This document shows, piece by piece, positions 24,144 through 53,129 of a DNA stretch of 64,000 nucleotides. Made by a program: the position numbers and the translations under genes. This DNA is from Limnochordia bacterium. Its GTDB lineage: Bacteria; Bacillota; Limnochordia; DUMW01. The notes below the pieces were generated by a model. The model had not been told where the DNA came from, ran no database searches, and was given only the letters and a program-made list of their open reading frames with translations. Position 1 is the stretch's first letter, and the number at the start of each line of letters is the position of its first letter. The stretch lies in NCBI GenBank assembly GCA_023230925.1, contig JALNWK010000005.1:13111-77110 (forward strand). Direction: 5' to 3'.

Positions 24144-24155
24144 TTCCCGACTCTA

Positions 24156-31600: not shown

Positions 31601-31771
31601 AATCTTACCATCCGGTCTTATTTGCACAATAGTTAGTAAATCCGGATGACCCCAAACCGAAATCTGCAACACATCGCCGGGCGCTAACAAGTACTCATCG
31701 GCAGCACCATGGGCAGTTGCTGCTAACACACAAACAACGATAATAAGCAAACAATTTACCCTTTTTCTCAT
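25628..31771 (-). CDS. Giant (2047 aa) Wza/KpsD-like polysaccharide export protein with N-terminal Poly_export domain and about 22-23 tandem SLBB domains
   Basis: Signal peptide present. The Poly_export-like N-terminus reads LLAPGDVLQISVWGHPDL...IGVPPLTGDIVASGKSSSQLANEL. The unit V.VLGEV..PG.Y......LLD.IA.AGG then repeats about 23 times at roughly 80-90 aa spacing. Confidence 0.85.
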   Translation of the reverse strand: MRKRVNCLLIIVVCVLAATAHGAADEYLLAPGDVLQISVWGHPDLLTIVQIRPDGKIGVPPLTGDIVASGKSSSQLANELMERMKELIVSPRVTVVVKEFRTIQVRLFGEVQVPGLYDLKPESTISELLARAGGLTPEASISEIKITRDGQLEIVDFAQIVSEGRRDQFSLESGDIVFVPKERKALVLGEVNVPGAYTVREGTRILDLLSLAGGYSKEADLRQVVLQRGDDQHIVDLEVIRRSGGGANNIEICAGDIMYVPKAEQVVILGQVNNPGAFQVMGDLSLLELIAMAGNTTEGALIDQISITRKVGGQQERIVVDLDAILQKDQNKPDIPIFGGDVVFVPKAEREVIVFGQVQRPGSYDLRPGSRLTDAIAIAGGITELGDATKVSISSKDQAEPVVVDVKDAISARPKADNPHLSGGDIIYVPETKRHAIVLGEVRNPGTYVVEEGVTIYELLALAGGLDVTADKAKISITRQTSDAVLIKELDLGDALRQVVSDEVLVRPGDVVYVPEDNRGVLLLGEVRNPGYFKIAKELTVLDVLALGGGPTPQADLSAASLSLRVGDDVRLIEIDLEQVLARPFSETNRLLEGGEVLIVPKVERQVVILGEIRVPGGYEILPEATLLDMIALAGGPTERANLGEVSLTRQTATGPVLCTIDVSAILSNTKPEDNLPIEPRDVIYVPKAQKQVVVLGEVQSPGVFDIQEDIRLLDALAMSGGVAEHGDAENVHVLLKDGTRRVFNVQKTMSDAPDGLLSPIIEPGGVVYVPRARRDITVLGEVTRPGTYTVIGPTRLLDALAMAEGTTPEADIDLIWLTSEDRDQPQRYSLLEAKADPKGPLNPILSGGDVIYIEKAEERQVVVFGEVNAPGVYNLEPGQGLLEIIGQAKGFSSFADVEAVALRRIENGSFVSKEINCQTLLQDDGSSNIPLVGGDVIFVPKRVRQVTVLGAVARPGRYTLESSASILDVLGLAGGLAKEANASGLMLSRPEGAELEKIDLEAVEQQPNIAQNIMLSGGETIVVPQMATEVLIFGEVRSPGAYAIKGATSALEVVARAGGFTLFADTEEVTISRLTDEGYSPIQTQFDLVTPDVVRGGDVIYVPRVERHIWVLGEVRNPGVFQVDEKGLSIMQLLALAGGLTSKADATKINVHVDERSLVVGLDGENQPQNRLVGGEVVYVPATRQGVLVVGEVRNPGYYVPEPGSRVLDLIAMAGGLNEQTASMQGRLSRFGNESDPLPIDLAALVYQGDPKENLVIHGGDVLFIPKENREVVVLGEVRIPGRYTIAAGHDRLLDIIGLAGGLNANARQDAVRIIRADGKQEEIDFVEALTNSDFNLGLKPQDMIYVPRDEREVLVLGEVTRPGHFGYQKGLGPLELLSKAGGATEDADLSGAYILRKSADGSYCRIPADLGKLTSQDVDGFVHILAGDVLYLPRANRRVLILGEVNRPGTYLTEPGDTLLDLIGKAQGPTVQADLERVSLSRDDRTEVLDAKAMMGDVNQDNPLLVGGDIVFIPRANRQVLVLGQVNNPGYYIVDAGARVLDVLAMAKDITPKADPSKVTLVRDEDEIRIYTMDLNAVRQQYDLTSNIEVQGGDVLIVPEGEHDALILGEVSHPGTYPVKEGERLFNLITKAGGLAQDELGEAIVVRKAAMEPRRIVVDLQTVLHEPDSSDNVEVFPGDLVYIPLVRRQVSVLGAVNRPGQYTLLTGDSLLDMVAKAGGLRDDADGDSIIVGDESGEEIYSLTRIASGLMDSPLLSPGCAVYVPMLTQQVLVFGEVRNPGAYPLGTNNRLVDIIALAGGVTDRANTQSITLSRADGAVTHVFDLFSLYKLQGDDVRISPGDIVYVPRARNVMVLGQVRSPGAYLLPQGSRLLDAISLAGGVLPGASLDQITITRTEDDQDVILQADFHALTHQLALNTNYPIQEGDVIFVPEAKLEVVVLGQVKQPGMYSIGPDTRVMDVIAMAGGPTERAALQSVGIYRGADVSQVGEASLGDKLLFEGDVKKANPIVVGGDIIYVPETTSPDWNTIFQFLTGVKLFKDLVTGW
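25700..31500 (-). repeat. Protein-level tandem array of SLBB-like domains; the array period is about 250-270 nt, nucleotide sequences are divergent, and coordinates are approximate
   Basis: The [VI].[VIL][LF]G.V..PG.[YF] motif recurs 23 times in the translated ORF. Confidence 0.7.
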
Positions 31772-35222: not shown

Positions 35223-38200
35223 TTAGAAGCTGAACCCAACTGTCGCAAGGGCTTCCCATACCTGATAATCTTCATCAACGTTGGTATCCCAGCACAGCTC
35301 AGCATAGTTACTGCTCAGCGAAATGTTAAAACCGTTACCGATTGGGTAAACATACTTCATGTCAGCAGTTCGAGCGCTAAAGCGATCTGATTTCTTGGTA
35401 TCAAGCCCAGCACTCTGCTTTGCAGCTAGACTTAAGCTACCACCGTAAAGCTGACGATCAGCCGTAAGTGAAAGCTTACTCTCTGGAGCAAGACTAGCAT
35501 TGGTAAGCAAATCAGTACTCTGACCGTACTCAACACCAACACCCACCTTGGCATTGAGCAATTCTCCAGTATAATCAAGTCCGATACTGGCAGTCCCTAC
35601 CTTATCCGTTACAGTAGAGCTAAGCAAGTCCTCCGTTGTGGTAACACGATACCCAGCAGCAAACATCAAGCCATCACCGGCATCAATGACCGACCTCAAT
35701 CCACCTACGGTCTTGCGGTTCTCCTGCCACTTATCCAGTTCGGTCCACTTGTTATCTACGATTTCCCTCGTAGTCCACTGATACGTTGCATCAAGACTGA
35801 CTCCGGGACCTACTGGCATCTTATCGATATTCAGTGCCACTTGATAGTGCTGCCTATCATCGACACCAAGCTCCTTCAAATTAGCCACATCTAAATCAAG
35901 TACTACAGGCAAATCGAAGGGCGCTATCTTTCTGGAAACAGATAGTTTGCCGATAGAGTGATCCAGCTCGTCAGTGGTGGAGAAATCTCTGGTGAAGTAT
36001 GCACCATACAGGTCAAAGTCGAGTATATTCCGCTTAGCATCCAAAAGATTCTCTATCTTGGAGCTTTCACCACCGTCATCCTTGGTCGTGATATCCCTGC
36101 GCTCATAGCCAAGCTCGGCTCCAAAAACGTCGACGTTCTTCAAAGTGGTAATATTAGATAGTTCGTAATGGCCTTTCGTCACACTAGTATCTAGTCTACC
36201 AACTTGTTGAGTAAGCTTTGCACCAAACACAGGAGCCGAGGCCGTTAAGACATACTTCCTTTGATCCGGTAAAAGATCCCCGTCTTTGCTCTTGAAGTCC
36301 TTCGCATATTTCGGAGCAAATCCCTCAGCAACGTTTCCATAGTCGAAACCAATATCTATAATCCCAACGTTGGTCCCAAGTTTGACGTCGGTTGCGGTAA
36401 CGCTATCTGCCTTGTACGAATCTACCGTATACTTTAGGTCATAGTCAATATTACCAATCGAGCCTACAGTACCAATCTGGCCCACCCGGTCACGAGCATA
36501 TGCTGGTGCCCCGGCGCCAACATGGGGGTCTGTGAACCAACTTACCAGTCGAGTATACAGTTTCCCAGTTGCAACATCAAATTCACCGTAAACAGCAGCT
36601 AGATACTCACCCACATTAAGCCGTGAGAAGTACACATCAGCCCTTACAGTATCGCTAAAGGCGAGTTTGGAACTAACACCAAACATCTTCAGTGGCTCGA
36701 TCTTCTTCTTGTTAATGGTGTATTTGTCAAAGGAACCAGCGATCTCGTCATGGCTCAGTGAGCCAAAGTAAGCTAGTCTAAGCACATCGGGAGTTTCCAC
36801 CCTGACACTCATATCCGACAGACGCACGTTAAAGTCCGGATCGCTGCCGAAGAAGTTGGTCACCGTTGCCAAGCTTCCCTTAACCAGTACGTTATCACTA
36901 GGATAAGCCTCAAAACCAAAGGTTAACTTGTGTGCGAATCTGCTCACAGCAGGATCGTACAGCTTCGGATTGGAGGTCTTTGTATCCCTTACATGAGGAT
37001 CTTTGTATAGCTTTGCAGCATCCCCTGCCACGACAGCCCTGTTAACTAACTCTAGGCTAGTATCACCAAAGAACCTGACCTTCCCAAACTTAGCCGCGAA
37101 CTCCTCAAAGGAACCAGATAGAGCATCGTGGTCCTTGCGCAGATCTTGCTGCTGTGCTGCCAACTTTCCGGTGGCATCCTCAAGATCTCCCACGGCCACT
37201 CGCAGTTCCTGTTGTCCTTGCTCGACCTTTGCCAACCGGCTACTCAGGAGTTCCTGGGTGCTCTCAATGTTCTTAACCTCAGTATCCAGCGCCACCACGA
37301 AGGAGCGTAGATCATCTAATCCTGTAGCACCGGTCTGCAACTCGGCCTTGAGTTCACTGATCGTGGCCTCGATTCGATCGGCACGTTTGTTGGTGCGTTC
37401 TATCCTAAATAGGAGATCACCCATCTTTGAGTCTAGCACTGCATTACGAGACTCAAATAACGAAAGCATACCCTTTATGCCATCAAATTCTTCCTGCAAT
37501 TCTGCCTCAGTCAGATCCAGTTTCGCTTCGATTCGCTCAACCTGTTTGTTTGCTCGTCCAATTCTAAACAAAAGATCGCTTAACTTCGAATCGATCACGG
37601 CATTCTTCGAGTCCAAAACAGAAATTGCACTCTTTACAGCAACGATCTCGTCTTCTAGTTCCGCATTGGTGGCATCAAGCTGCTTCATGATGGAAGCTGT
37701 TTTCAGATCGATTAGTGCCTTTAGACCGTCCACATCCTTAGACATGGCCGCCAGTTGCACGTCAAAAAGACCCATTTGGTCATTGAGTAGGTCTGTGACC
37801 TGCTGTAGCTTGGTGGCTACTTCGGATGCTTCAAGTGCGGTCTGCTCGGCGGTCTTACTGATCTCCAGTCCTTCCTTTGCCACAGTTAGTGCTTCAGCGG
37901 CGGAAACCTGTGCCTCTTGCCCCAACTTGACTGCCTTCTCGCCAAGGGCCTTGGCCTCCTCGGAATATGCAACAGCCTCAGCAGATCTGGTTAGGGCCGC
38001 ATCACTATTCTTAACAGCGGTCTGCGCCATTTCTGCAACTTCAGGGCCGGTAGTATCGGTGCTTTGTTGAACCTTCAATGCGATTGCTTCGGCCCGACTA
38101 GCGGTTTCTGCTGTTGCATCGCTTAGTGCCTTAAGTTCCTCCAGCACTTTGGCAATTTCAGCACTCTGGTCCTTAGCCTCAGCAGCTGTGGAGTAGGCCC

Positions 38201-39095
38201 CGTTTCCAATTCGCATGGCTTCTTCAGCTGTATTTCTGCTGGCAGCCGCTACCTCGCTGCTAGCCTTAGCAATCTCCAATGCCCGTTCAACCGAAGCCTG
38301 AGCCTCTGCCAATGCGTTACCATAGTCAGCCAGTTCCTTCTCAAGCAGATCAGTTTTGTTGCTAGCAAGCTCTGCAATAACCTTGACTTGGTCCAGCTGA
38401 TTGGTCAGCCCAGCGATCTCATCACTGTTAAGCTTTAACATCTCCAAGGCGTCCTCTTTGGATAGCCCGGGGGTTAGTTCACTCAATCTTTCAGCAACGA
38501 GATCTGTTACCAACGCCCGAACATATGCCTCGGTTTCCTTTTCGAAGGCATCCTGATCGGCTGTAAGTTGATCCACAAGCACCGCCTGTGCGGAATCAAA
38601 ATCCGCTTTCAAACCAAGCTTTGCCTTTTCCAGACATTCTCTGATCTCTTCTTTTTGGTCGATAGAAGCCTTATCTAGGACTGCCATGGCTTCGGCAAAT
38701 TTCGCAGAAAGAGTATCAAGTTCTGCTGCGATAGCTTCGTCAAGCTTGTCCCCAAGCTCTCCGGCGACTCTCTTAGTAATTCGCTCCTCAAAGGAATCTA
38801 GGCTTTGACCCAGTTGCCACTCGATCTCTGATGAAGCGTATTCCTCAATATCCGAAATGAGTCTCGACATTACCATAGCCATTTCGTATCTAGTGAATGA
38901 ATTGCTTCCCTTGTATTCCCCATCAGGGTAGCCAATAACAATACCCGTTGCAGCCAGCTCAGCAATGGCATCATATGCCCAGTGGTTCTCTGCTACATCC
39001 GGAAATGGCATTTTTGATGCATAGGTAGTAAAAACTAAGCCTACCACAAGAGAACATATCGCAACAACAATTACAGGTGTTGTACGTTTGAACAT
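35223..39095 (-). CDS. Giant (about 1291 aa) envelope protein: signal/TM, SLH domain, roughly 700-aa Ala/Glu/Leu-rich coiled coil, C-terminal beta-barrel-like domain
   Basis: Start trimmed to MFKRTTPVIVVAICSLVVG. SLH motif FPDVAENHWAYDAIAELAATGIVIGYPDGEYKGSNSFTRYEMAMVMSRL. Long heptad-repeat region, then a beta-rich region with alternating hydrophobics ending ...EALATVGFSF. Confidence 0.8.
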   Translation of the reverse strand: MFKRTTPVIVVAICSLVVGLVFTTYASKMPFPDVAENHWAYDAIAELAATGIVIGYPDGEYKGSNSFTRYEMAMVMSRLISDIEEYASSEIEWQLGQSLDSFEERITKRVAGELGDKLDEAIAAELDTLSAKFAEAMAVLDKASIDQKEEIRECLEKAKLGLKADFDSAQAVLVDQLTADQDAFEKETEAYVRALVTDLVAERLSELTPGLSKEDALEMLKLNSDEIAGLTNQLDQVKVIAELASNKTDLLEKELADYGNALAEAQASVERALEIAKASSEVAAASRNTAEEAMRIGNGAYSTAAEAKDQSAEIAKVLEELKALSDATAETASRAEAIALKVQQSTDTTGPEVAEMAQTAVKNSDAALTRSAEAVAYSEEAKALGEKAVKLGQEAQVSAAEALTVAKEGLEISKTAEQTALEASEVATKLQQVTDLLNDQMGLFDVQLAAMSKDVDGLKALIDLKTASIMKQLDATNAELEDEIVAVKSAISVLDSKNAVIDSKLSDLLFRIGRANKQVERIEAKLDLTEAELQEEFDGIKGMLSLFESRNAVLDSKMGDLLFRIERTNKRADRIEATISELKAELQTGATGLDDLRSFVVALDTEVKNIESTQELLSSRLAKVEQGQQELRVAVGDLEDATGKLAAQQQDLRKDHDALSGSFEEFAAKFGKVRFFGDTSLELVNRAVVAGDAAKLYKDPHVRDTKTSNPKLYDPAVSRFAHKLTFGFEAYPSDNVLVKGSLATVTNFFGSDPDFNVRLSDMSVRVETPDVLRLAYFGSLSHDEIAGSFDKYTINKKKIEPLKMFGVSSKLAFSDTVRADVYFSRLNVGEYLAAVYGEFDVATGKLYTRLVSWFTDPHVGAGAPAYARDRVGQIGTVGSIGNIDYDLKYTVDSYKADSVTATDVKLGTNVGIIDIGFDYGNVAEGFAPKYAKDFKSKDGDLLPDQRKYVLTASAPVFGAKLTQQVGRLDTSVTKGHYELSNITTLKNVDVFGAELGYERRDITTKDDGGESSKIENLLDAKRNILDFDLYGAYFTRDFSTTDELDHSIGKLSVSRKIAPFDLPVVLDLDVANLKELGVDDRQHYQVALNIDKMPVGPGVSLDATYQWTTREIVDNKWTELDKWQENRKTVGGLRSVIDAGDGLMFAAGYRVTTTEDLLSSTVTDKVGTASIGLDYTGELLNAKVGVGVEYGQSTDLLTNASLAPESKLSLTADRQLYGGSLSLAAKQSAGLDTKKSDRFSARTADMKYVYPIGNGFNISLSSNYAELCWDTNVDEDYQVWEALATVGFSF

Positions 39096-39432
39096 GTGAT
39101 AGTACCCTCCCTCATAAGCATGTACGACTTGATTACGTAGAAATCTCCCTATGTATGTCAATGCAGCCATAGGGTGCAGGTTAATTCTGATCTATACTTG
39201 ACAGCCCGGCCGGTAGTTGCCCGGCGACTAACAAGAGCACCCCCCCTTTCGGCAATATACCTGCCGGACGCTAGAATAGAGGTAGCATGGATACAACATC
39301 CGACACTTCAATATCACATTCGCTAGTAACCTGCAAAATCCTTCTTGAAAATCAACATATCTTCCAGATAGTTGTGTCCATCGCCGTTGTGTTGGATAAT
39401 GTAGCAAATCTTATCAAAACCATGGAGACCCA

Positions 39433-40108: not shown

Positions 40109-41467
40109 CTAGCCTACAACAACAGGTCCCTCGGGATACCGAACCCCATCCCCTTCAGGAGCCACAAGTCTTCGTCCAAGAGCAAGAGCCAAGGTAACTG
40201 GCCCAATTCTTCCTGCAAACATGACCATCATGATCAGGAGCTTGCCTAGACCAGACAATACTGGTGTAATACCAGTAGATAAACCAACCGTACCGAAGGC
40301 AGAAACGACTTCAAACAAGACGGGCAGGATGGGCAGGTCTTCAATAGCTAAGAGCACCATAGTTACAGTGACTATTAGGGCTAAGGCCAATACCATGATG
40401 CTTAGAGACCTCCGGACGGTCCTCTCTGAGATTCGACGATAGAACAACACATTATCATTCTGTCCTTTAATGGAGTTCCCAACGGCAACCATAATACAAG
40501 CGAAGGTTGTCGTCTTGATACCACCACCGGTGGACCCAGGTGATGCCCCGATAAACATCAGTAGTAATATAAAAAACAAGGTGACTGGACGCATTTGCCC
40601 TACGGGTACCGTATTGAACCCGGCAGTACGTGGGGTCACGGCCTGAAAAAATGCGGCTGTAACCTTTGCCCCAGGATCCAATGGCCCTAGTGTCATCGGA
40701 TTATGGTACTCGGCGACCAGAACAAAAATAAAGGCCCCGGCAATAAGAACTAGCGTACTAACTAGAACTATCTTTGAATGCAAGGATAGCATGCGAAACC
40801 TACGCTTAACAGTGGCCTCTCTTAGCACAAAAAAACCTAGTCCCCCGGCAATAATCAAAAATGAGATCACGAGATTGACAACAACGTCACCCACAAATCC
40901 TTCAAGGCTTGTTCCGAAAAGATCAAACCCTGCATTGTTAAAGGCAGATATTGCGTGGAACACCGCGAAGAAAAAGGCACGACCTGCTGGCATGTCCCCG
41001 ACCCAATGAAGAAAGAGAATCACAGCACCAATGCCTTCAAATATCAGCGCGATCTCGATGATCAGTCGCGCCATTCTGACTACGCCTGAAACAGATATGT
41101 TATTCAGATCCTCTTGAATCAGCTGTCTTTGACGAATACCAATTCTTTTGCCAAGGAGCAAGGCAAACAACGTGGACATGGTCATAATCCCAAGTCCCCC
41201 GATTTGAACTAGAATCATTATGATCGTTTGACCAAACCGGGAAAATCCAGTGGCAGTATTTAGTACACTCAAGCCCGTAACACAGGTGGCCGAAGTGGCC
41301 GTAAAAGCTGCATCAAGAACGGATAACTCGACACCCGGGCGAGTTGCTATAGGCAGTTTCAGTAGTAGTGTGCCTACTACAATTACGGAGAAATATCCAA
41401 GACCTAATACCTGAGCTGGTGTTAGTCTTTCAATGGAAAAAACCCAATGTCTTTTTCTATGCATCAT
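40109..41467 (-). CDS. ktrB: K+ transporter membrane subunit (TrkH/KtrB family)
   Basis: 452-aa polytopic protein with repeated pore-loop GLG/GGG motifs. Confidence 0.8.
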   Translation of the reverse strand: MMHRKRHWVFSIERLTPAQVLGLGYFSVIVVGTLLLKLPIATRPGVELSVLDAAFTATSATCVTGLSVLNTATGFSRFGQTIIMILVQIGGLGIMTMSTLFALLLGKRIGIRQRQLIQEDLNNISVSGVVRMARLIIEIALIFEGIGAVILFLHWVGDMPAGRAFFFAVFHAISAFNNAGFDLFGTSLEGFVGDVVVNLVISFLIIAGGLGFFVLREATVKRRFRMLSLHSKIVLVSTLVLIAGAFIFVLVAEYHNPMTLGPLDPGAKVTAAFFQAVTPRTAGFNTVPVGQMRPVTLFFILLLMFIGASPGSTGGGIKTTTFACIMVAVGNSIKGQNDNVLFYRRISERTVRRSLSIMVLALALIVTVTMVLLAIEDLPILPVLFEVVSAFGTVGLSTGITPVLSGLGKLLIMMVMFAGRIGPVTLALALGRRLVAPEGDGVRYPEGPVVVG

Positions 41468-42777
41468 TCGTTTCCTTTAGTCTCGGCTACCACAAGCTCG
41501 ATTTGGAGCTTACCTGTATTCCACGTATCATGTTGGGCAACAGCATTTACGATAAGGGTTCCTTCACTATCCCGCACCGCAGCTATTGCTTTGAAAAACT
41601 CCTCACCGCTTGTTTGCCCAACTCGTCCTTCGGTATCGGTGACCATACCCTTTGCAATGGCCAACTCATTAACTTGCCGTAGCAAGGACAAAATAACGTC
41701 CTCTATATTTTGGGTATCACCGCCGAGAACCTCCACACTGGCCAGCACTTCCCCTTTTTGGAACACCTTCTGCCTGGGTTTGATATCAAACCAAACAACT
41801 ACCCCTTCTCCTAATACAGTGTTTCCGTGGGCCACCGCCCGGACAACGTATTGGCCGCTTTCCTCTCCGAGAACACGCACCACTTGATCAAAGTGTTCTT
41901 CTGAATATAGCATAATCGCGTAGTTATCCTTGCCTTCAATTCGTGCCCCTCGACCGAGGGCTACTTGGTTGGCACGTAACAAAAACTGCACTAGATCCAA
42001 TTGTGCGGCGTCTTGTCCTTTTCCGCCCTCCATCACTTGAGCAAAGACTATCTCGTTTGCTTTGAATGCAAGATGTCCGTACCTCATCTGTTCGTTAAAT
42101 CGTTGATATGCCTCATCAAGCTTTTGATATTGTTCCAAAAGATTGACAATCTTAGTCTCAAGCAAGGTCTCCCGTTCCTGAAGCTCCCTAACCTTTGCTT
42201 GGATCATCTCACTTGCATCCTTAAGGTTCTCCACTCTTTCCTTCTCAAACTCCAGATCCTTCTCTGTAGTGGCAAGATCCTGTTTTGCCTGTAAATAAGC
42301 GCCTTGGATATCCTGAAGCTGCTGAATCACTATAGCCCTCTCTTGACGCGCTTCTTCTAGTTCCCGCATAGCTTCATTGCGCTGTTCCTCCATGAATGAT
42401 AATTCTTGTGCCTTCACTGTCACCTCAGACCGCAACGATTCCACCCTTAGTTGCTGTTCAGCGAGAAGGTCTTCGGCGTCTTCCAATAGTCTCTGGCTTT
42501 CCTCATAGCGACTCTCGCTTGTAGCTAGGGCCTGTTTTACTTCTTTCATGTGGAAAAGAGCTGTTCTGACATCCTCGGAGACTATCGACATTACCGTTAC
42601 ACTTGCCGCTGCAATGACCACACCGGTAAGAACAGTAATTATCATAGAGGTATATCTGGGTCGCATACCTAGAAGGGTTAGTCGTTTTTTACCAATCTTC
42701 ATCCCAATCCGATCCCCAATAAAGGCAATAACTCCACCGGTAATGATCAGTAATACAACTAACACAAAACCGCCCAC
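41464..42777 (-). CDS. Membrane-anchored coiled-coil protein (DUF3084-like)
   Basis: N-terminal TM helices followed by about 200 aa of coiled coil and a C-terminal globular domain. The family assignment is from memory. Confidence 0.5.
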   Translation of the reverse strand: MGGFVLVVLLIITGGVIAFIGDRIGMKIGKKRLTLLGMRPRYTSMIITVLTGVVIAAASVTVMSIVSEDVRTALFHMKEVKQALATSESRYEESQRLLEDAEDLLAEQQLRVESLRSEVTVKAQELSFMEEQRNEAMRELEEARQERAIVIQQLQDIQGAYLQAKQDLATTEKDLEFEKERVENLKDASEMIQAKVRELQERETLLETKIVNLLEQYQKLDEAYQRFNEQMRYGHLAFKANEIVFAQVMEGGKGQDAAQLDLVQFLLRANQVALGRGARIEGKDNYAIMLYSEEHFDQVVRVLGEESGQYVVRAVAHGNTVLGEGVVVWFDIKPRQKVFQKGEVLASVEVLGGDTQNIEDVILSLLRQVNELAIAKGMVTDTEGRVGQTSGEEFFKAIAAVRDSEGTLIVNAVAQHDTWNTGKLQIELVVAETKGNE

Positions 42778-42807: not shown

Positions 42808-43896
42808 TTACTTTTTTGCCCTAATTAGCAGTATAACAGCTGCAATTCCCACAAATAAGTTGGGTAGCCACGCACCGAGAAACGGCGCCAAGGCCCCACT
42901 CTCTCCTAGAGCCAGTCCAAAGGTCATCACAATATAGTAGACTAAAATAATTGCCATACTCATGCCAAAACCCACTGATGACGCTGAACGATGAGACTGA
43001 ATACCAAGTGGTGCTCCGACAAGAGAAAACATTAATGTGGCGGCTGGAGTTGCAAATCGGGCATGCAATTGGGTGAGTAATTTGGGATCAACATAACCTT
43101 GCCCACGTAAAATATCGATATGATCCTTTAGTTCCTTAGCGGTCATTTCATCGGGATGTTTCTGGTTCCTGGCAATATCCGTCGGTCGAAACGCGATATC
43201 CGCTGGCTGCCGTCCCTGACCAAACTGCATGGAAGCAAGTCCATCATCGGCATCATGATAGTACACTACAGCATCACTCATATACCATTGTTCAGAGTCC
43301 CATATCACCGATGTAGCATAAGTGGTACGCTGGGGCTTACCATTAGATAAATCCATCATGGTCACATCTCGCATGACCTTCTCTTGCCCATCGAATTCCG
43401 CCGCATAAAGAAACCAAGTCATTCGTTGCCTATCGTACCTCTTCAGAATAACATTTCTTTGGACCATTGACAAGTTTGTCCCTTTGACCTCCTCAGCTAT
43501 GATCCTGGAGGACTCAAGGTTGGCTGCGGGTAGAACATATGCATTAACTCCCAGGGCAAGGATGGTACCAACAATCCCTGCCACAATGGCAGGTCGGGTA
43601 ATCTGATAAAAGCTAATTCCCGCGGCACGCATCGCCACGACTTCACTAGCGGCGGACAGCTGGCTTAAGGATAGCAAAACACCTAGTAATACAGCCATGG
43701 GTAAGACCCAAACAATGATCTGGGGTAATCCCAGCAACAACAGACGTCCAGCAGTATTCCACGAAGCCCCATATTCCGTAACATAGCGGATCACCTTCAT
43801 GATGTCACTGCCAATAAAGATACTGCTAAAAACACCAATCCCAAACAGAATAGGAGGGACCAACAGTCTTATTAAATACCGATCCAATAGTTTCAT
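42808..43896 (-). CDS. lptG: LPS export ABC permease, LptF/LptG (YjgP/YjgQ) family
   Basis: [10 protein letters not shown]...[18 protein letters not shown]-terminal signature of LptF/G, 362 aa. Confidence 0.8.
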
Positions 43897-44609
43897 AGAC
43901 TAAACCGATCCCCCAAGTAGAACTTTCTGGCCACGGGATCCAATGCAATCTCCGAAGACGGTCCTTCAACCAGAACCTTTCCCTGATGCATAATATAGGC
44001 GCGATCAGTTATACTGAGGGTCTCACGCACATTATGATCTGTAATCAAAAGGCCCAGTCCCTTATCCTTGAGCATAGCAATAATGCCTTGAATATCCGCA
44101 ACGGCAATGGGATCCACCCCTGAAAACGGCTCATCCAGTAACATGTATCGAGGCCGTGCCGCTAGAGCTCTAGCAATCTCGACCCTTCGCCTTTCCCCTC
44201 CGGAAAGAACATATCCTCTTTGCTTGCGTATAGCAGCAATATCAAACTCATCGAGTAGCTCCTCAAGTCGATCAGTTCGCTGCTTTGGTGTCAGATCCAG
44301 CAGCTCCAGAACAGCCACAATGTTGTCCTCGACACTGAGCTTGCGAAATATGGAAGCTTCTTGGGCTAGATATCCGATGCCAAACCGTGCCCGTTTATAC
44401 ATTGGCCAGCTGGTCACATCGGTTCCATCAACGGATATTCTCCCGGCAGAAGGTCTTTCTAAACCAACAATCATGTAAAAGGTCGTGGTTTTACCGGCAC
44501 CGTTAGGTCCTAACAACCCGACAATTTCACCGGGTTCCACTTGAAGACTGACTTCATTGACAACTTTTCGCCTACCATAGCACTTGATCACCTGTTCTAC
44601 AACAATCGC
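43893..44609 (-). CDS. lptB: LPS export ABC transporter ATP-binding protein
   Basis: Start trimmed to MAIVVEQ. Walker [10 protein letters not shown] and signature [19 protein letters not shown] overlap with the lptFG-family gene. Confidence 0.85.
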
Positions 44610-44740
44610 CATATTGCCATGCTCCCCGCAGCATTCCTGTCCATGATGATATGCTTTTATTATAGCATCACTCCCGTTAACGGCAAAGGGCCCCGCCGAA
44701 TCAGGAGGGGCCCTTCTTCTCAAGTCTATGAAGCAACTCA

Positions 44741-47700
44741 CTACTTGCTGCTAATCGGAGTACCTGTTACCAAACTCATGAACGCCGTCATCAAGGCTTC
44801 GCTAGCCCTATTCCAATCAGGGATCTCATAATCTGCAACTTGCCCGATTGCACTAGGAAGTATTTCCGTACTTAGGCTTTCCCACAATTGCCGTGCTTCA
44901 GCCGCAACCTGATTAACATCATGGCGCTCCTCTAAGGACCGTTGAATAGTGAGTAATGTCCCCAAGGGATCCTGCAGCAGTGTCTCGAGGAAAACCTGCT
45001 CATTCTCATCAAGCGCATTCCAACTCCAGTCCCGACGGTCCACATCGAATCTCCAGTCTAACCCCGCTAGGGTTTCATCGAAGGCTGCCGCTACGGTGGT
45101 CATGTTTAGTGCCTCGGCTCTGGCACGGAAATCAACCATGGCGATATCTACAACTTCGGGCATCCGCTTGATTTCCTCCTTTACCCCAATCAGATGCCTT
45201 GCAGCTCCGATTAGCAAAGCGGCTTGCTCTACATCCAACGTTCTGACCTGGTTAGATGCCTCAATCAAGATACTATTTGCTGTGGCATAGCCAACATTCT
45301 GACCTCGATCGGATATGGTCTTTAGGGCAGCTGAGGTGGTGTTCATGATCGTCTGCAACCGACCACCAAGTGAAGTCTCACCTACCCAAAGCGTCTCAAA
45401 TACAAACGTATTGATTGCCTCGGCCGTTTCAGGAAAACCATCGGATGTGGCAACTGCTGCTAGTTCCTCATATAGTATGAACTGTGTTTCCCTTAATAGA
45501 GGAATCACATTGGCCGCATTAAGCTGTTGGCTACACAGTTGCTCTATACAACGATTAAAGACACCTCGAGCGTCCTCTTCCGTAATGCCCACTTCACTCA
45601 ACCGCGCAAACAGGTTCGGCTCCAACTCGCTATAGGTCGTCTTTACCTCGCTAATTGTACTGTTCAATCCGGTATTCAGTGCTGTGTAAACTTCATCAAC
45701 CAGTTGCTCAGTTAGATTCAGGTCAGGATAGGCGATGAGCGCATCAGATAAAGTCATGAAGCAGTCCGCCATATAGCTTTGGATTTGTGCTTCAGTGTAG
45801 CCAGACCCAAAAGCACAGCTTAGCCCATCACCCAATACAAGTATAGCCGCTTCTACATCACCAACCAAAACCTTCGTGGTTGCCAATACTCTGTAGTTAT
45901 CCACCGTCGGGAACTCAGTCACCAACTGTTCAGCATATTCCAAAGCAGAATTGAAGTCTTGAGTCTCCTCCAAGCAGATCCTAATGATCAAGTGCAAATC
46001 AGCTTCTTCTAATACGGCACCGGGCCAGTGAATCGCCTTATCCAAGGAGGCAATCGCCTCTTCAAACTTGTCGAGGTTATACTTAGCTACACCCATCATT
46101 GAGTGCATACGAGCAGTCTGATCGCTGTCGCTAAGTAGCCCTAGGGCTTGCTCCAAATCTGCCTCCGCTAAAGCCCACTCTGTCGAACTCACTTCCATTT
46201 CCGCACGACGTACATACGCCCACCCAAGGTCCACAGCATAACTAGCATCTAACCCATGGGCACTGGTTAGATAAGAGATAACATTATCAATCTCCTCGGC
46301 TCCTTGGGCAAGCATGTAGTAACACAGGGCTTGCTTTTCATTGTACAGAGCGGAGCCTGCGGGATAATCAAGGGCTGCCAGTTGGTACTTCTCGATAGCC
46401 CCTTGGTAATCCTCACTTGTAAATAGAGCCTCTGCCCATGCGGCATAGGCTTGCCCCCGGGCGGTTTTGTTCTCTTCACTATCTACAAGGGTAATGGCAT
46501 CGGTATATGCACCAATCGCTTGCTCATAGAAAGCTCCGTCCAAATACAGAGCACCAAGGGCTAGATATACATCCGCCTTACTTGCGATGTACTCAATCTC
46601 CCCGGTGGGATTTACGTATATGGCCAAGTCAAGCTTTGTTAGGGCTTGCTGCAAGGACTCCAAAGTCCCAAGTTCAACAAGCTCCAAAGCCCACTGGTAA
46701 TAGGCTAATCCATGGGCCTGGTTGTATTCTGTCTTTTGATCTGACTGCACTGCCATGGCAAAGTAGTTAACTGCATCAGCCCAATTCTCTGCTGCCATTT
46801 CCAGATTACCCAGGGCGAAATAGACCGCCGCCTTATTGGCAACATAGCCTGCTTCGCCATCAGGATGAATGGCAATAGCTAAGTTAAGTTTCTCTAAGGC
46901 CAGTTGCAGACTAGCTTCATCCCCTGCTACCGCCAATTGCAGTGCCCAATCACGATAGGTCTCGCCAAACGCTTGACGATTCTCCTCCAGCAATGCGGGC
47001 CAGAGCGCAAAGGCTTGGTTGTAGTAGTCTATAGCTGTTTCGTACTGACCGGCTGACTTGGCTGCAATCGCTTGATTGACTAGATTGCGGGCCTTTTGTT
47101 CATCGCTTGGCCAAAGATCCTCAATGGGTGTGCGAGTTACTAGACTCATAAAGGCTTCCATTAAGGCCGTTGCAGCAGTATTCCACTCTTCTACGGTGAA
47201 GTCCGGAATTTGGCCAATGGCCTCGGGAAGAATCTCGGTACCTACACTGTGCCAAAGGGCCATGGCCGCTGCGGCTGAATCATTTACATCATCATGTTCT
47301 TCCATTGCTCTTTGGATTACTAGTAGGATGCCCACTGGATCCTTCAGAAATGTCTCCAGAAATGCCTGTTCGTTTTCCTCTAGGCTATTCCAGTCCCAAT
47401 CCCGACGGTCTACATCAAACTTCCAATCATTGGCTGCTAAGACTTCATCAAAGGCTGTGGCAATTCCACCAAGCTGTAGCGCCTCAGCCCGCTCTTTGAA
47501 TTCTGCCAAAGCTATTTCAATAGCCCGGGGCATCTTCCGGATCTCATCACGGACGCTAATAATATGCCGTGTCGCTCCAATGAGTAACACTGCTTGCTCC
47601 ATATCCAAGTCGTAACCAACATAATCTGCACAATCCCAAAGGAGGTTCACAGCTACAGCTGAACCCAGAACCTCATTTCGATCAGATATGCCCCGCAAGG

Positions 47701-49483
47701 TTGTTACTGCGGTATCCATAATCGTTTGTAGCCGACCCCCGAGGGAGGCCTCACCAACCCAAAGGGTCTCAAATATGGCTTGGTTCACTGCTTCCGCTGT
47801 TGCTGCGAAATCACCGGTTGCCAAGGCAAGTAGCTCATCATACAGCTGGAATTGGGTCTCCCTTAAAAGAGGAATGATATTTGCCGCATTGAGATCTTGG
47901 CCTAACAAATGATCAATGCAGGTATCAAAAACTGTCCTTACCTGCTCTTCGGTAATCCCAACTACAGCTAGTTCGCTAAGGAAGTCCCCTTCTACCACAT
48001 CATAGGTGCTGACCACTTCCTCAATGCTAGCAGACACTGCATCGTAAAATACACTACCGATTTGCGCCAATAGCTCTTCCTCTAATCCCAAATCTGGATG
48101 AATGAGAAATGCATAGGCAGCAATATCGAAGTAATTACTAATGTAGTACTGAATGTCCTCATCGGTATAGTCTTCGCTAGCCAAGACCAACTTTAGTCCG
48201 TCAAGATAAGTAAATAGCCCTTCCTCAATGTTGCCATTAACCAAGTTTGCACAGGCCAGAATCTGATAACTGAATCCACCCGGGAATAACAGGACTGCTT
48301 GTTCTGCCACCATCAAGGCCGTATCTAGATCCTGTGCAACCTCAACACAGTACAGGAACACACTATAGTAATAATAAACATCAACTTGAACATCAGGGGC
48401 ATTAAGCCAACGCAGCCAGTATTCTACCGCTGTTGAGTAATCCTCTACCCCATTAGCTGTGGCAGCCATCAAGTACCATAGTTCTGAATTCTGTTCCTGT
48501 TCCGGAATCAAGCCAAGGGCAATGTTCATATCATCGTAAGCTGCCTCATATTCTGAAAGGCCGAGGTGTTCTGCCGCCCGCTCTGCATAGGCAAAACCTA
48601 AGTCGGCAGCGTAGCTAGGATCCAATTCATGGGCACTAGTGAGGTAAGAGATGACATCATCAGTCTCCTCGGCTCCTTGGGCAAGCATGTAGTAACACAG
48701 GGCTTGCTTTTCATCGTATAGAGCGGAGCCTGCGGGATAATCAAGAGTCGCAAGTTTGTATTTATCAATGGCACCTAAGTAATCTTCAGTTAGGAAAAGA
48801 GCCTCTGCCCAAGCAGCATAGGCTTGGCCCCGGGCGGTTTTGTTTTCCTCACTATCCACAAGGGTAATGGCATCGGTATATGCACCAATCGCTTGCTCAT
48901 AGAAAGCTCCGTCCAAATACAGAGCACCAAGGGCTAGATATACATCCGCCTTACTTGCTATATACTCAATCTCCCCAGTGGGATTAGCCGATATGGCCAG
49001 ATCAAGCTTCGTCAGGGCTTGCTGCAGGGACTCCAAAGTCCCAAGGTCCACAAGCTCCAAAGCCCACTGGTAGTAAGCTGATCCATGGGCCGCATCATAT
49101 TCCGTCCTTTGGTCCAGCTCAACTGCCAAGGCAAAGTAGTCAACCGCATCAGCCCAATTCTCTGCTGCCATTTTCAGATTACCCAGGGCGAGATACACCG
49201 CCGCCTTATTGACCACATATCCGGATTCGCCAGCGGGATGAATGTCTATGGCTAAGTCAAGCTTTTCTAAGGCCAGTTGCAGATTAACGTCTTCGCCAGT
49301 TGCAGCTAATTGAATCGCCCATTCAAAATAGACTTCGCCTACTGCGGCCCGATTCACCTCTAACAGGCTCTGTTCTAGATCAAAAGCCTGTTGGTACAGA
49401 CTCAGAGCTTCAGCATACTGTCCTTTACCCTTGGCCAACCGTGCCGCGGCTAGGAGCTTCTCAGCTTCTGTCGGAGCTGTATC
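44741..49483 (-). repeat. Intragenic tandem duplication, two units of about 2.37 kb each, boundaries approximate
   Basis: Nucleotide blocks at about 46255..46720 and about 48630..49090 are roughly 90% identical, including a stretch of about 100 nt with perfect identity (gggtaatggcatcggtatatgcaccaatcgcttgctcatagaaagctccgtccaaatacagagcaccaagggctagatatacatccgccttacttgc). The offset is about 2370 nt. Confidence 0.85.
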
Positions 49484-50545
49484 CTTTTCCGGCGGTTCAG
49501 GTACCGGTAGCACTAAATCAGCAACTGCATCAATATCTCCACCGGCACCAATGACATCACTTAGCGTATCAAGTGCGGCATTGATCTGGGAGAGAGATTC
49601 ACCATTTCGTACAATGTTGGAAAGAACTGAAGTAGTCCTTGTCATTTCCTGTCCCGACATACCCATATCCGCGGCATCCTGAAAAAGGGCCTGTAAGCGA
49701 CTAAGTAAACCTTCCACTTCTGCTGCACTCACCGATTGTCCGATTGCAGAGGAAAGGGCGGATAGAAGGTTCTCAAGTCCGGTGTCGGATATCCCAAGCT
49801 CCGCTCCATCTACAACAAGACCCGTGATCTGGGCAATCAACCGATGGACTTCATCTGCCGTGTTACACCGGAGGGATGCCTCATACAAAGCCTGGATGGT
49901 ACCTCTTACTACACTTGAACCGCCCATCTGTCCTAGGAAATCCTGTAGATACTCGATAACCTGCAACATATTAGTAGCATCACCTAGGGAAGCCACTATT
50001 TCCATAACGCTTAGCGTATCTTCGAGCGTCTGCTGACTATAATCAAGATCACCCATTTGCGTAAGAAAACCACTCAAGCTGGTGACGACATCACTAAGCT
50101 GATCAGGATCCTGGGTTGTCTTGCCGGTATTACCAAGCACCGCGGATACCTGGATAACGATCGTTGCACTTTGCTTCTGCTTGATCAAGTGAGTCACGAA
50201 TAACTCCACGTCATCGTCCCTGCCGTACTGGCTGGCGATGATCAAGTTCGATGCAACCTGCCCTGCTGTAGTAACAGAATAGCCTTCTTCCAGGACTGCT
50301 GGCACCGTATCCCCAATAATACCTTGGGGTATGACGGGATTTGACACATCAGCCAATGCCGCAGCTAGTGTGTTTGATACACTTTGCCAGAGAGCTAATT
50401 CTCTAAAGTAGTCGAGGTTAAGTGCTTCTACCTCCGACTGCACTTGGACCCATTGGGAATCAGAGAGCCCCTGTGCATTCACAATAGAACATAATAGGGT
50501 AAATAGTAACATAACGATAACGGGAATAGAGCTACGTCTTCTCAA
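44741..50545 (-). CDS. Giant (1934 aa) secreted TPR-like repeat protein composed of a unique N-terminus plus two copies of a roughly 790-aa unit
   Basis: Signal peptide [29 protein letters not shown]-like helical repeats of the form [13 protein letters not shown]. The second half repeats the first with long identical stretches. Confidence 0.85.
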
Positions 50546-50611
50546 TATAAATTCCCTCCTTAGTACTTACACCGTACCTTCCGCTTTACTATAACCTTGA
50601 AAACTCTCCCG

Positions 50612-51793
50612 CTAAAAACGGTAATCTACGCTCAAACCACCGCCCCATGATTTCTTAAAAAAGTCGGAACTAGATAAACAAAAGTCAATCTCAACTGGTC
50701 CCACTTTTTTACCAGCTCCAAGCCCAATAACCATACCCTCAAGACTGGTCATTCCCACTTTCATCCTGCCCGTTGTCCCAGAGGGTAAAATTCGCTCAAG
50801 GCCAAGTCGTATATCAACGTTAGCGTTCTTCTCTATTCGACGAACAAACTCCGTGTAGACGGCACCACTTTGACCAGCTCTGGCTACATAGGCCACTCGA
50901 AGTGTAGGCGTGCGAACCTCAATAGATTCATAGTCCTGTATCACTTCCTCCTCTTGTTGCCGGACTCCCTTCCATTCAACCCGTGTATACAAATCATCAA
51001 TAGCAATGCCAAAATCCGATTCCCCTGTTCCGTGGTAAAACGCAGCAACATCGATACCAACACCGCGACCAGACACATTCTCACTGGCATACTTGGACAA
51101 CTCGTATAACCCCATCAGATACCTTTCACCGGCAACTCCTTTCACTCTCCCACCGATGGTAATACGCTGGGTCTGTAACTCGTGAGAGAAGGCGGCAGCA
51201 AAGGTATCCAGATCCGTATACCCGATCTGAATATCAAGACCTGTCATGGAAATCACCGATTCCTGTTGCTTAATATGGGTTAGATTTCGTTGTTCTGAAC
51301 CGGAATAAGCAGTTACCCAGTTCAAATGATAGCGAAAGGGCATCGATACCAAAAGCTTTGCTAGGGTCATCTCATATTCCTCTAGAAAACCGTCTAGGTC
51401 AAAGGTATCCGCCGTCTGCAGATCACCAAGCATAACTAACAGTTCCGAAGCTACTTCCACATTAGTTACTCTTGCAGACAATCCAGTAACCACGACGGGC
51501 CGTATCTCTATGTTTTCTTTATGTAATCTTTGGCGAGGTGGAGGTGGAACGACGTTTAGCTCCCGCACTTCGCCTGTGCGGGGGTCCTTAAATCTTTGAG
51601 ATATTCTGATGATGGGCCTGGGTGTTTCGTTTAAAGTACGTGATGCCGCAGACCACAAGGGTCCACCTGCACTGCCAAGAAATCCCCAAGAGTCTCCTTC
51701 GAGACTCCAGGCACCGGGCCCGAAATCCGCATAGGTGATTTCCGTAATTAGACCGAAAAGAACAAGACAAATTAATGTCCACGTCTTGCGCAT
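50612..51793 (-). CDS. Hypothetical outer-membrane beta-barrel protein
   Basis: Signal peptide MRKTWTLICLVLFGLITEITYA. Alternating hydrophobic beta-strand pattern. The C-terminus ...GGGLSVDYRF has the terminal Phe typical of BAM substrates. Confidence 0.55.
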   Translation of the reverse strand: MRKTWTLICLVLFGLITEITYADFGPGAWSLEGDSWGFLGSAGGPLWSAASRTLNETPRPIIRISQRFKDPRTGEVRELNVVPPPPRQRLHKENIEIRPVVVTGLSARVTNVEVASELLVMLGDLQTADTFDLDGFLEEYEMTLAKLLVSMPFRYHLNWVTAYSGSEQRNLTHIKQQESVISMTGLDIQIGYTDLDTFAAAFSHELQTQRITIGGRVKGVAGERYLMGLYELSKYASENVSGRGVGIDVAAFYHGTGESDFGIAIDDLYTRVEWKGVRQQEEEVIQDYESIEVRTPTLRVAYVARAGQSGAVYTEFVRRIEKNANVDIRLGLERILPSGTTGRMKVGMTSLEGMVIGLGAGKKVGPVEIDFCLSSSDFFKKSWGGGLSVDYRF

Positions 51794-51890
51794 ATAGTGC
51801 CACTCCGTTATGCGTAAAGTGCCGAACCCTGCATTACTTGATTGATCTATTCGTCGTCTATCCTGGTTTTACCTTCTTTAACCGCGTTCT

Positions 51891-53129
51891 TTATGGTGAA
51901 ATAGTATTATAATTAGACGAAACCTCCCGGATATACTGTCCAATCCTTTGTGCTCCACCAGGGCTGCCCATCCTTTTCTTGCCGCACGTAGCCATGCGTC
52001 GATATGTATCAGGATCATCTAGAATGGCCTCTACTTGCTTAGCTACACTAATAGGTGAAGGATCCACTAAGCTCACCGCATCACCTAGTAACTTCTTCTG
52101 GGCCAGGGCAAACTTTCTGGTAAACTGAACACCTTTTCCGGGAAAGGTAATAACAGGCTTGCCCAAACCTGCGGCTTGCTCGTTTGCTGTGCCCGCAAGT
52201 CCAATCACAAGATCACAAGCTCGGAGCAGGCCTCCAAAACATCCCTTCAGGAAAATAACCTCTGACTGATCACCAAGAATGATCTTACCTACCATCCCTG
52301 CGGACTGCTCATCGAATCCAGTCTCCTTGTAATACCAGCGACCATTGTCATATCCTTCTAAGCTAATCAGACTCGTAATCTGTTCAAAGGAGAGGCTCGA
52401 AGCCAAGGGGACAGCAAACTCGTATTGCGTGTCTCTTTGTGCAATTGCATCAACACACGCAAGCAAGTCCCCAAGATTGAGATAGGCATCACCCCTGCTA
52501 CCAGGTAGTAGACAGATCAATGGGGTGGTTGGGGTTTGGGGATAGACGGATCCATCCTGCATGAGCATATCCATCATTAGATTGCCGGCAAAATCAGCTT
52601 CTACACCGTGCCGAACCATGGCATCAGCGGTATATTGATCCCGGGCGTAGACCCTCTGACAATATCGACGCATTAGCTTATACTCCAACTCATAATGCCC
52701 ACTGATGAACTCTGTCTTAGCAGTAGCCACAAAGATCATGGGACGTTGGAGAAACCAACCCCCTAGAAGTACCGGATAGATATCTCCCACACAAACAACA
52801 AAATCTATAAACTCACGTGCCTTCCTTAAGGCGGATATCTGTGCTACAGTAAGCCCTACTAGACCAGCCTTGACGTCTTTCCAAAACTGCTTCAAGCCCA
52901 ATCTTGTAAAGCCGCCAGAGGGCATTTCCGCCCTAGGTCCAATGACCTCAATACCCTGCTTCCGGTAGGCTTCACCTAATCCCACCAAGGGAAGTGCGCA
53001 GATCTGGCTTTGCAGCGACAAGAGTTCCTCGAGAAGGACCGCGGCAATGGCATCCTCCCCGTGACCGTTACTCAAAAACAGAATTCTCTTATGCTGTACC
53101 CTCTCCATGATACTCTCTCTCCCACTCAC
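51891..53129 (-). CDS. LpxB-related GT-B glycosyltransferase (lipid-A-disaccharide synthase-related family)
   Basis: N-terminal ILFLSNGHGEDAIA Gly-rich loop analogous to LpxB AGEPSGD, 412 aa, immediately downstream of msbA. Confidence 0.5.
   Translation of the reverse strand: MSGRESIMERVQHKRILFLSNGHGEDAIAAVLLEELLSLQSQICALPLVGLGEAYRKQGIEVIGPRAEMPSGGFTRLGLKQFWKDVKAGLVGLTVAQISALRKAREFIDFVVCVGDIYPVLLGGWFLQRPMIFVATAKTEFISGHYELEYKLMRRYCQRVYARDQYTADAMVRHGVEADFAGNLMMDMLMQDGSVYPQTPTTPLICLLPGSRGDAYLNLGDLLACVDAIAQRDTQYEFAVPLASSLSFEQITSLISLEGYDNGRWYYKETGFDEQSAGMVGKIILGDQSEVIFLKGCFGGLLRACDLVIGLAGTANEQAAGLGKPVITFPGKGVQFTRKFALAQKKLLGDAVSLVDPSPISVAKQVEAILDDPDTYRRMATCGKKRMGSPGGAQRIGQYIREVSSNYNTISP

Follow-up and report, generated by a model that had tools for sequence, protein, structure and literature searches.

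The locus examined here raises two questions: what kind of protein is encoded by a giant open reading frame (ORF) lodged in a lipopolysaccharide (LPS) gene cluster, and how the two long units of which that protein is built can be almost identical over one segment and widely diverged over the rest. The ORF lies at 44741-50545 on the minus strand of a 64,000-nucleotide (nt) stretch of a Limnochordia bacterium (assembly GCA_023230925.1, contig JALNWK010000005.1), hereafter the window, and we refer to it as the giant gene. Our analyses suggest that it probably encodes an exported, duplicated tetratricopeptide repeat (TPR) protein in which an old duplication is overlaid by gene conversion of a core segment, and that it is a lineage-specific accessory near the LPS genes.

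Architecture of the giant gene and its two units

We verified the ORF as 1934 codons opening with TTG. The architecture of its product is a signal peptide, an N-terminal domain (N-domain) of ~330 amino acids (aa) and two tandem units of ~790 aa, each consisting of a ~465-aa TPR solenoid (~11 hairpins) followed by a ~325-aa helical C-domain. The corresponding features, including those modelled with AlphaFold2 (AF2), are as follows.

44741-50545, minus strand: whole gene, 1934-aa hypothetical protein identical to MCK9221350.1 of the metagenome-assembled genome (MAG) Limnochordia bacterium
50555-50561, minus strand: ribosome-binding site AAGGAGG, read from the sequence and lying 9 nt before the TTG start (50543-50545)
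50474-50545, minus strand: predicted Sec signal peptide, aa 1-24, followed by QG
49487-50473, minus strand: unique N-domain (aa 25-353), acidic, with abundant Ser, Val, Leu and Gln
48101-49486, minus strand: unit 1 TPR-like solenoid, aa 354-815, assigned by homology to the modelled unit 2
47123-48100, minus strand: unit 1 orphan all-alpha C-domain, aa 816-1141
45725-47122, minus strand: unit 2 TPR-like solenoid, aa 1142-1607, modelled by AF2 as 23 helices in ~11 hairpins
44744-45724, minus strand: unit 2 orphan all-alpha C-domain, aa 1608-1934, helical in the AF2 model at low confidence

The original prediction had described a unique N-terminus followed by two homologous units of ~790 aa, a tandem duplication of ~2.37 kb, a core of ~85 identical residues and ~100 nt of identical DNA, and each of these is borne out. 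The several direct-repeat families recovered by a repeat search are all spaced at a constant 2373 nt (3 x 791), and local protein alignment of aa 354-1141 with aa 1142-1934 (score 2262) spans the whole unit, with 3 small indels and 57-58% amino acid identity end to end. The identical core comprises 17 + 65 residues interrupted by a two-residue difference (SA vs YV), and the longest identical DNA run, of 101 nt, lies at 48858-48958 and 46485-46585. The earlier estimate that the flanks are 60-70% identical needs correction: 25-codon blocks outside the core share anywhere between 8% and 76% of their amino acids, with values dropping to 8-32% in the distal TPR part and lying at 24-76% towards the C-terminus, and DNA identity ranges from ~40% to 73%. 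Since 2373 is a multiple of three, unequal crossing-over within the identical run would give in-frame variants, which would contain one unit (1143 aa) or three units (2725 aa); neither variant was seen among five assemblies.

The signal peptide follows the pattern MRRRSS, then a hydrophobic stretch, then VNA before QG, with a cleavage site predicted from the VNA-Q motif, and it is the sole clearly hydrophobic segment in the 1934-aa protein; the product had earlier been called secreted, and this prediction agrees. A canonical lipobox was not found (Cys19 lacks lipobox context), nor were a membrane anchor, a rubredoxin domain, an OstA-type domain or a Cys-rich C-terminus. With a pI of 4.06 and a net charge of approximately -208, this is the most acidic protein in the window. 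The N-domain (aa 25-353) returned no family, PDB or internal-repeat match. An origin of this domain as a degenerate copy of the C-domain was considered and rejected, as the similarity was not significant (hhalign E = 0.2, blastp E = 0.71). A 34-residue stretch at aa 222-302 (49640-49882) is faintly like a C-domain segment that begins EVGITEE and includes a further 12-residue motif, again at a level that is not significant.

Gene conversion between the two units

Concerted evolution by gene conversion is known from the tufA/tufB genes and from tandem repeats in surface proteins. In the giant gene, three tracts are relevant to such a process.

48596-49261, minus strand: homogenised core, unit 1 copy, aa 429-650, including the 101-nt run at 48858-48958
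46223-46888, minus strand: homogenised core, unit 2 copy, aa 1220-1441, including the 101-nt run at 46485-46585
48812-49076, minus strand: strain-variable tract of unit 1, columns 424-688 of A6 (an alignment of both units from four strains), with its unit 2 counterpart at 46439-46703

We estimated synonymous divergence (dS) between unit 1 and unit 2 within the window using the NG86 method. The value is 0.49 for the aa 429-650 core and 0.40 for a tight core at aa 504-628, compared with 2.6, 3.0 or incalculable values outside the core, including in C-domain segments that are 65-70% identical in protein. Because dS is saturated in these C-domain segments, protein constraint cannot explain the low dS of the core. 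Third-position identity follows the same pattern, at 0.72-0.96 across most of the core (0.48-0.56 in two blocks) vs 0.16-0.52 in the flanks.

Sequences from other assemblies of the same species allowed the two units to be compared among strains. The 90% cluster of MCK9221350.1 has seven members from five assemblies of one species, among them a 1923-aa JGI product (P0102) that is 100% identical and lies on an 80.6-kb contig. Three assemblies contribute partial proteins: one from PHV61 (aa 1-1162), two from ACOYEN (aa 1-1073 and aa 1074-1934) and two from PHH90 (aa 1-1029 and aa 1506-1934).

Differences between strains are concentrated in the core. Between the window and ACOYEN, unit 1 differs at 26 of 360 core sites (7.2%) vs 8 of 1799 sites elsewhere (0.44%), and unit 2 differs at 10 of 360 core sites vs 2 of 1849 elsewhere; single nucleotide polymorphisms (SNPs) between strains are ~16 times denser in the core than outside it. 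Within columns 424-688, the two units of the window differ at 21 sites, and at 16 of these unit 1 of ACOYEN and PHH90 carries the unit-2 allele. To the left of this tract, four sites in ACOYEN unit 2 carry the unit-1 allele, and columns 355 and 451 hold an allele that is common to both ACOYEN units and found in neither unit of the window. The window's unit 1 core haplotype recurs in PHV61, and that of ACOYEN recurs in PHH90. Together with the depressed dS, these mosaic patterns support continuing, patchy gene conversion between the units in both directions, as had been proposed for the core. A segment of ~0.3-0.7 kb encoding the central TPR hairpins would have been repeatedly homogenised between the units, with tract boundaries and direction varying among co-existing strains; such variation points to concerted evolution confined to one part of an intragenic repeat with two copies.

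One may postulate instead that the core is nearly identical only through strong purifying selection or codon constraint, or else through a younger partial re-duplication, and not through continuing conversion. The core is the best-conserved part of the protein (86-100% amino acid identity in its blocks), and the two-codon difference within it persists in both strain groups. The selective explanation is difficult to reconcile, however, with the saturated dS of the C-domain segments, with between-strain differences in the core that mostly switch to the paralogue's allele, and with two strain-specific alleles that are common to both units. A single old partial re-duplication is excluded because the tracts differ among strains that are 99% identical. 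We therefore consider this alternative very improbable.

The two-codon difference lies at 48986-48991 and 46613-46618 (A6 columns 510-514) in the 84-aa core, reads Ser-Ala in unit 1 and Tyr-Val or Phe-Val in unit 2, and is kept despite conversion around it. A second cluster of between-strain SNPs was observed in unit 1 at 47230-47330 (aa ~1060-1090), with 10 SNPs in ~90 nt in PHV61, and its position coincides with the abutting ends of the ACOYEN contigs (aa 1073/1074). This cluster may represent further patchy conversion, or it may be a strain bubble that breaks assemblies.

That the two-unit structure is itself an assembly artefact, arising by expansion or mis-joining of a single unit, can be excluded for practical purposes: contigs do end within the gene in three of the species' five assemblies, as do both contigs of a related species, but the units differ at 42% of residues and, along most of their extent, at over 50% of nucleotides and thus cannot be copies of the same reads, while the junction from unit 1 to unit 2 is spanned in four assemblies (the window, P0102, L001 and L003) and both units were recovered separately in the ACOYEN and PHH90 MAGs. 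The warning that the direct repeat is an assembly hazard was nevertheless well founded, and the case helps to interpret MAG assemblies, which are prone to breaking here.

The giant gene resembles tufA/tufB-type concerted evolution in its depressed synonymous divergence, its mosaic tracts and its strain-specific alleles in both copies. It differs in that the copies are halves of one reading frame and that only ~28% of each unit is homogenised, the rest being saturated. It provides a natural example of partial concerted evolution within a single reading frame, in which one segment of an old duplication is still homogenised, and the differing tracts in co-existing strains are useful for studying the lengths of conversion tracts.

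Age of the duplication

A single related species was found to carry the gene, and it comes from biogas-fermenter metagenomes (loci L002 and L007). Its LptFG protein is 75% identical to that of the window, and the L007 locus shares the window's gene order (X-lptB-lptFG-DUF3084-TrkH-TrkA-SLH protein, where X is the giant gene's position). A 570-aa C-terminal fragment from L007 shares 52% identity with unit 2 and 40% with unit 1. Outside the core, 99 sites group unit 2 with L007, 65 group the two units with each other and 31 group unit 1 with L007; in the tail of the core, the two units are 84% identical to each other, and each is 45-49% identical to L007. As unit 2 resembles L007 more than it resembles unit 1, the duplication would predate the split of the two species, assuming roughly clock-like change. 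The saturation of synonymous sites outside the core likewise indicates that the tandem duplication is old. The L007 contig, from a k127 assembly, begins exactly where the identical core ends; such a start is what would be expected if the core were repeated in that species as well, which is only a hint.

A TPR solenoid joined to an orphan C-domain

The original prediction described the whole protein as a TPR protein. This holds for ~60% of each unit, where hidden Markov model (HMM) scores above cut-off coincide with a tandem solenoid of antiparallel helix pairs; the rest of each unit is an orphan all-alpha region. The protein matches Pfam TPR_12 at 46.4 bits (cut-off 30.1) and TPR_2 at 37.6 bits (cut-off 27). 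In the AF2 model of unit 2, residues 1-465 form helical hairpins comprising 23 helices, with a predicted local distance difference test (pLDDT) score mostly of 70-93. The top Foldseek matches of this model are OGT, SPINDLY, Ctr9, Ski3 and designed consensus TPR (CTPR) superhelices (E 3e-08 to 1e-06), with low TM-scores (0.14-0.23) and 12-23% sequence identity. The likeness to these proteins lies in the tandem antiparallel helical hairpins of the first ~465 residues per unit. They are, in contrast, cytoplasmic or nuclear and mostly eukaryotic or designed, and they have neither the orphan C-domain nor the two-unit layout.

The C-domain is modelled as helical at low confidence (pLDDT 30-60), so fold matches for it are meaningless. 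It contains several strongly conserved motifs, namely IPLLRETQF, ENEQxFLET and two others of 19 and 11 residues. A profile search of 1.84 billion representative proteins with a C-terminal query matched, over the C-domain, only the protein itself and one 62-aa fragment of a relative; the remaining 94 matches all fell at profile positions 2-158, in the TPR part, and were generic TPR proteins. No PDB sequence match to the C-domain was found at E <= 10, and PDB sequence searches with the C-domain and the N-domain gave nothing useful. A word-indexed search with the full protein returned nothing outside that protein's own 90% cluster, and one with the C-terminal alignment found no homologue, being swamped by TPR-like words. 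No relatives carrying the conserved peptide patterns or the degenerate pattern AAN[IV]IPLLRETQ were found in GTDB representative genomes or JGI metagenomes. NCBIfam gave only sub-threshold, TPR-driven matches to PorW/SprE and Ycf3, and PADLOC gave no defence-system match. The C-domain is therefore an orphan, with no detectable homologue in the 1.84 billion representatives or the PDB. The protein as a whole belongs among TPR scaffolds with an internal duplication under concerted evolution, a kind already known; its architecture is new and includes the orphan helical domain, and its taxonomic range is very narrow.

A variable slot in the LPS cluster

On a single strand, the window carries lpxC, lpxA, lpxI, lpxB, an LpxB-like gene, msbA, an LpxB-related gene (TIGR03492), a 393-aa gene and the giant gene; downstream of the latter, on the same strand, are lptB, one lptF/G gene, a DUF3084 gene, trkH and trkA. 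The neighbours are thus those originally described, between lptB and an outer-membrane protein/lpxB/msbA block, with the outer-membrane assignment of the 393-aa protein being putative. The genes closest to the giant gene are as follows.

50612-51793, minus strand: co-inserted 393-aa gene, putative outer-membrane beta-barrel with a signal peptide and a C-terminus ending ...LSVDYRF
43893-44612, minus strand: lptB, with a likely start near 44612; the mechanical ORF extends to 44741
42808-43896, minus strand: single lptF/lptG-type permease gene, used as an anchor for finding related loci

We placed the start of lptB near 44612 because its orthologues are called at 239 aa, and a promoter-like site occurs at 44659-44686 on the minus strand, in the gap between the giant gene and lptB. 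Many outer-membrane barrels end in a manner similar to ...LSVDYRF, and we consider the 393-aa protein a putative outer-membrane partner.

In more distant relatives (L008/L009, L010 and L011), whose LptFG proteins are 47-50% identical to that of the window, the backbone lpxA-lpxI-lpxB-msbA-lpxB-related ... lptB-lptFG-DUF3084 is kept. The slot between the LpxB-related gene and lptB is occupied differently in each.

L008/L009 (L008 7023-9124): GT2 glycosyltransferase
L010 (6104-9225): GT2 glycosyltransferase and epimerase
L011 (4387-9288): GT2 glycosyltransferase with ATP-grasp, acetyltransferase and TMP-TENI genes

Neither the 393-aa gene nor a large TPR gene was found in the slot of any of these relatives. 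Their absence from three relatives that keep the backbone indicates that the giant gene and the 393-aa gene are a lineage-specific insertion in a variable slot. By this gene-content comparison, the giant gene is neither part of the conserved LPS machinery nor a conserved Lpt, Bam or LapB-type component. The slot as compared covers 50612-53129 (minus strand) of the window, and its contents differ by lineage within an otherwise conserved LPS cluster. The insertion marks this slot in an outer-membrane/LPS cluster of the Limnochordia, a group that bears on ideas of how Firmicutes lost or kept the outer membrane.

Possible functions and the weight of the evidence

Taken together, we regard it as likely that the giant gene encodes an exported, duplicated TPR protein that is accessory to, and specific to the lineage of, the LPS locus in which it sits. 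The product would be a Sec-exported, soluble, very acidic, all-alpha protein of an uncultured diderm Firmicute (Limnochordia). Its most likely role would be that of a bivalent periplasmic scaffold or adaptor whose two TPR binding grooves are nearly identical, and it would probably cooperate with the putative outer-membrane protein inserted alongside it, serving an envelope function specific to this lineage.

Several points weigh against this account and should temper it. The localisation, partner and role of the 1934-aa protein are inferred throughout, and the 393-aa protein has no family match and was modelled by AF2 without an alignment at a pLDDT of 33, with strands predicted in its C-terminal half, which leaves an outer-membrane partner a weak proposal. 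ACOYEN unit 1 has 6 private changes within the variable tract that one simple conversion from unit 2 to unit 1 does not explain, and in the PHV61 SNP cluster near aa 1060-1090 no more than 6 of 10 sites match unit 2. The P0102 protein shows 100% identity to that of the window and may stem from the same sample. The strain sequences all derive from short-read metagenome assemblies, and assemblers can create mosaics in near-identical repeats; the identical runs in ACOYEN of at most 54 nt, and the occurrence of each unit 1 core haplotype in two assemblies, weigh against such mosaics. Finally, the three-sequence comparison with L007 cannot be rooted, and the same pattern would arise if the duplication were younger and unit 1 had since evolved faster.

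A more specific version of the periplasmic scaffold, and a weaker one, is that the giant protein is the TPR half of a pair for exopolysaccharide or polymer export, with the 393-aa neighbour as its porin, comparable to AlgK-AlgE or to a split BcsC, PgaA or PelB. AlgK, BcsC, PgaA and PelB are periplasmic TPR partners of outer-membrane porins in polymer export, and the giant gene shares with these systems a long TPR array with an export signal and a presumed periplasmic location, an adjoining putative outer-membrane protein gene, and sugar and lipid envelope genes nearby. That neighbour is co-inserted and has a signal peptide, a ...DYRF end and strands predicted in its C-terminal half; moreover, the slot in the relatives holds glycosyltransferase and sugar-modifying genes, and a large polysaccharide-export cluster lies in the same window. 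The resemblance is one of layout only, however. Neither a BcsC, PgaA, PelB, AlgK or AlgE family match, nor a fused barrel, nor an adjacent synthase gene was found, the immediate neighbours being LPS genes only; the barrel fold of the neighbour is unproven, and these systems have nothing equivalent to the orphan C-domains or the N-domain. On balance, we think such a pair unlikely.

A bolder proposal is that the giant protein and the 393-aa protein form an undescribed two-gene envelope module, in which a periplasm-spanning bivalent TPR scaffold with a new helical domain would dock on an outer-membrane barrel and feed or modify LPS or surface-polymer export beside LptB2FG, with conversion keeping the grooves identical since both must recognise the same partner. 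We offer this as a speculation to which we give little credence.

The original prediction favoured a core envelope-biogenesis role, either as a substitute Lpt bridge or as an expanded BamD- or LapB-like TPR protein. All on one strand, msbA and lpxB-type genes precede the gene and lptB-lptFG follows it directly, its product is predicted to be exported and has TPR arrays as do BamD and LapB, with a similar genomic link to envelope biogenesis genes, and no LptA, LptC or LptD family match was found among the window ORFs scanned. However, the gene is absent from the three relatives with the same LPS backbone, and among 1.84 billion representatives its homologues are limited to one species and one relative. 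BamD (YfiO) is a small outer-membrane lipoprotein of ~250 aa with a lipobox cysteine and 5 TPRs, whereas the protein here is 1934 aa long, has a signal peptide ending in VNA before QG with no lipobox, and matches no Pfam or NCBIfam BamD family. LapB (YciM) has an inner-membrane anchor, cytoplasmic TPRs and a C-terminal rubredoxin-type zinc site, whereas the present protein has a cleavable signal peptide as its only hydrophobic segment, no anchor, no metal-binding domain and no family match (the PorW and Ycf3 matches being sub-threshold and TPR-driven). The Lpt periplasmic bridge (LptA, LptC and the LptD N-terminus) is made of OstA-type beta-jellyroll domains, in contrast to the all-alpha prediction here, which comes with no OstA, LptC or LptD match and a gene that is not conserved with lptB-lptFG. 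Neither form of this proposal survives well, and we judge it improbable; a missing general component of LPS transport does not appear to be revealed here. The accessory TPR scaffold stays our preferred interpretation.

Other features of the window

Only one LptF/G-type permease gene is present in the window. The DUF3084 protein (41464-42777, minus strand) carries this domain at its N-terminus, ahead of a region with weak SMC-type matches, and its gene comes immediately after lptB and the lone lptF/G gene in all the related loci retrieved (L003, L007 and L008-L011). A 1315-aa protein at 35223-39170 (minus strand) has one SLH domain and then a long coiled-coil-like region with weak SMC/Rad50-type matches; its position is kept in relatives (L007 7365-11498, 1377 aa; L008 14045-17083, 1012 aa).

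Further along, 25628-31771 (minus strand) encodes a 2047-aa Wza/Poly_export-type protein with 23 SLBB domains, adjoining a Wzz/GNVR chain-length protein in the 22618-25613 (minus strand) region. The two adjacent ORFs at 22618-24143 may be tyrosine-kinase and PHP-phosphatase genes, and together these candidates would form an unusually large polysaccharide-export module. Across the whole window (1-64000), nearly all ORFs of at least 150 aa are encoded on the minus strand and every 2-kb bin has a negative GC skew, a pattern that is consistent with one replichore with a strong gene-strand bias.

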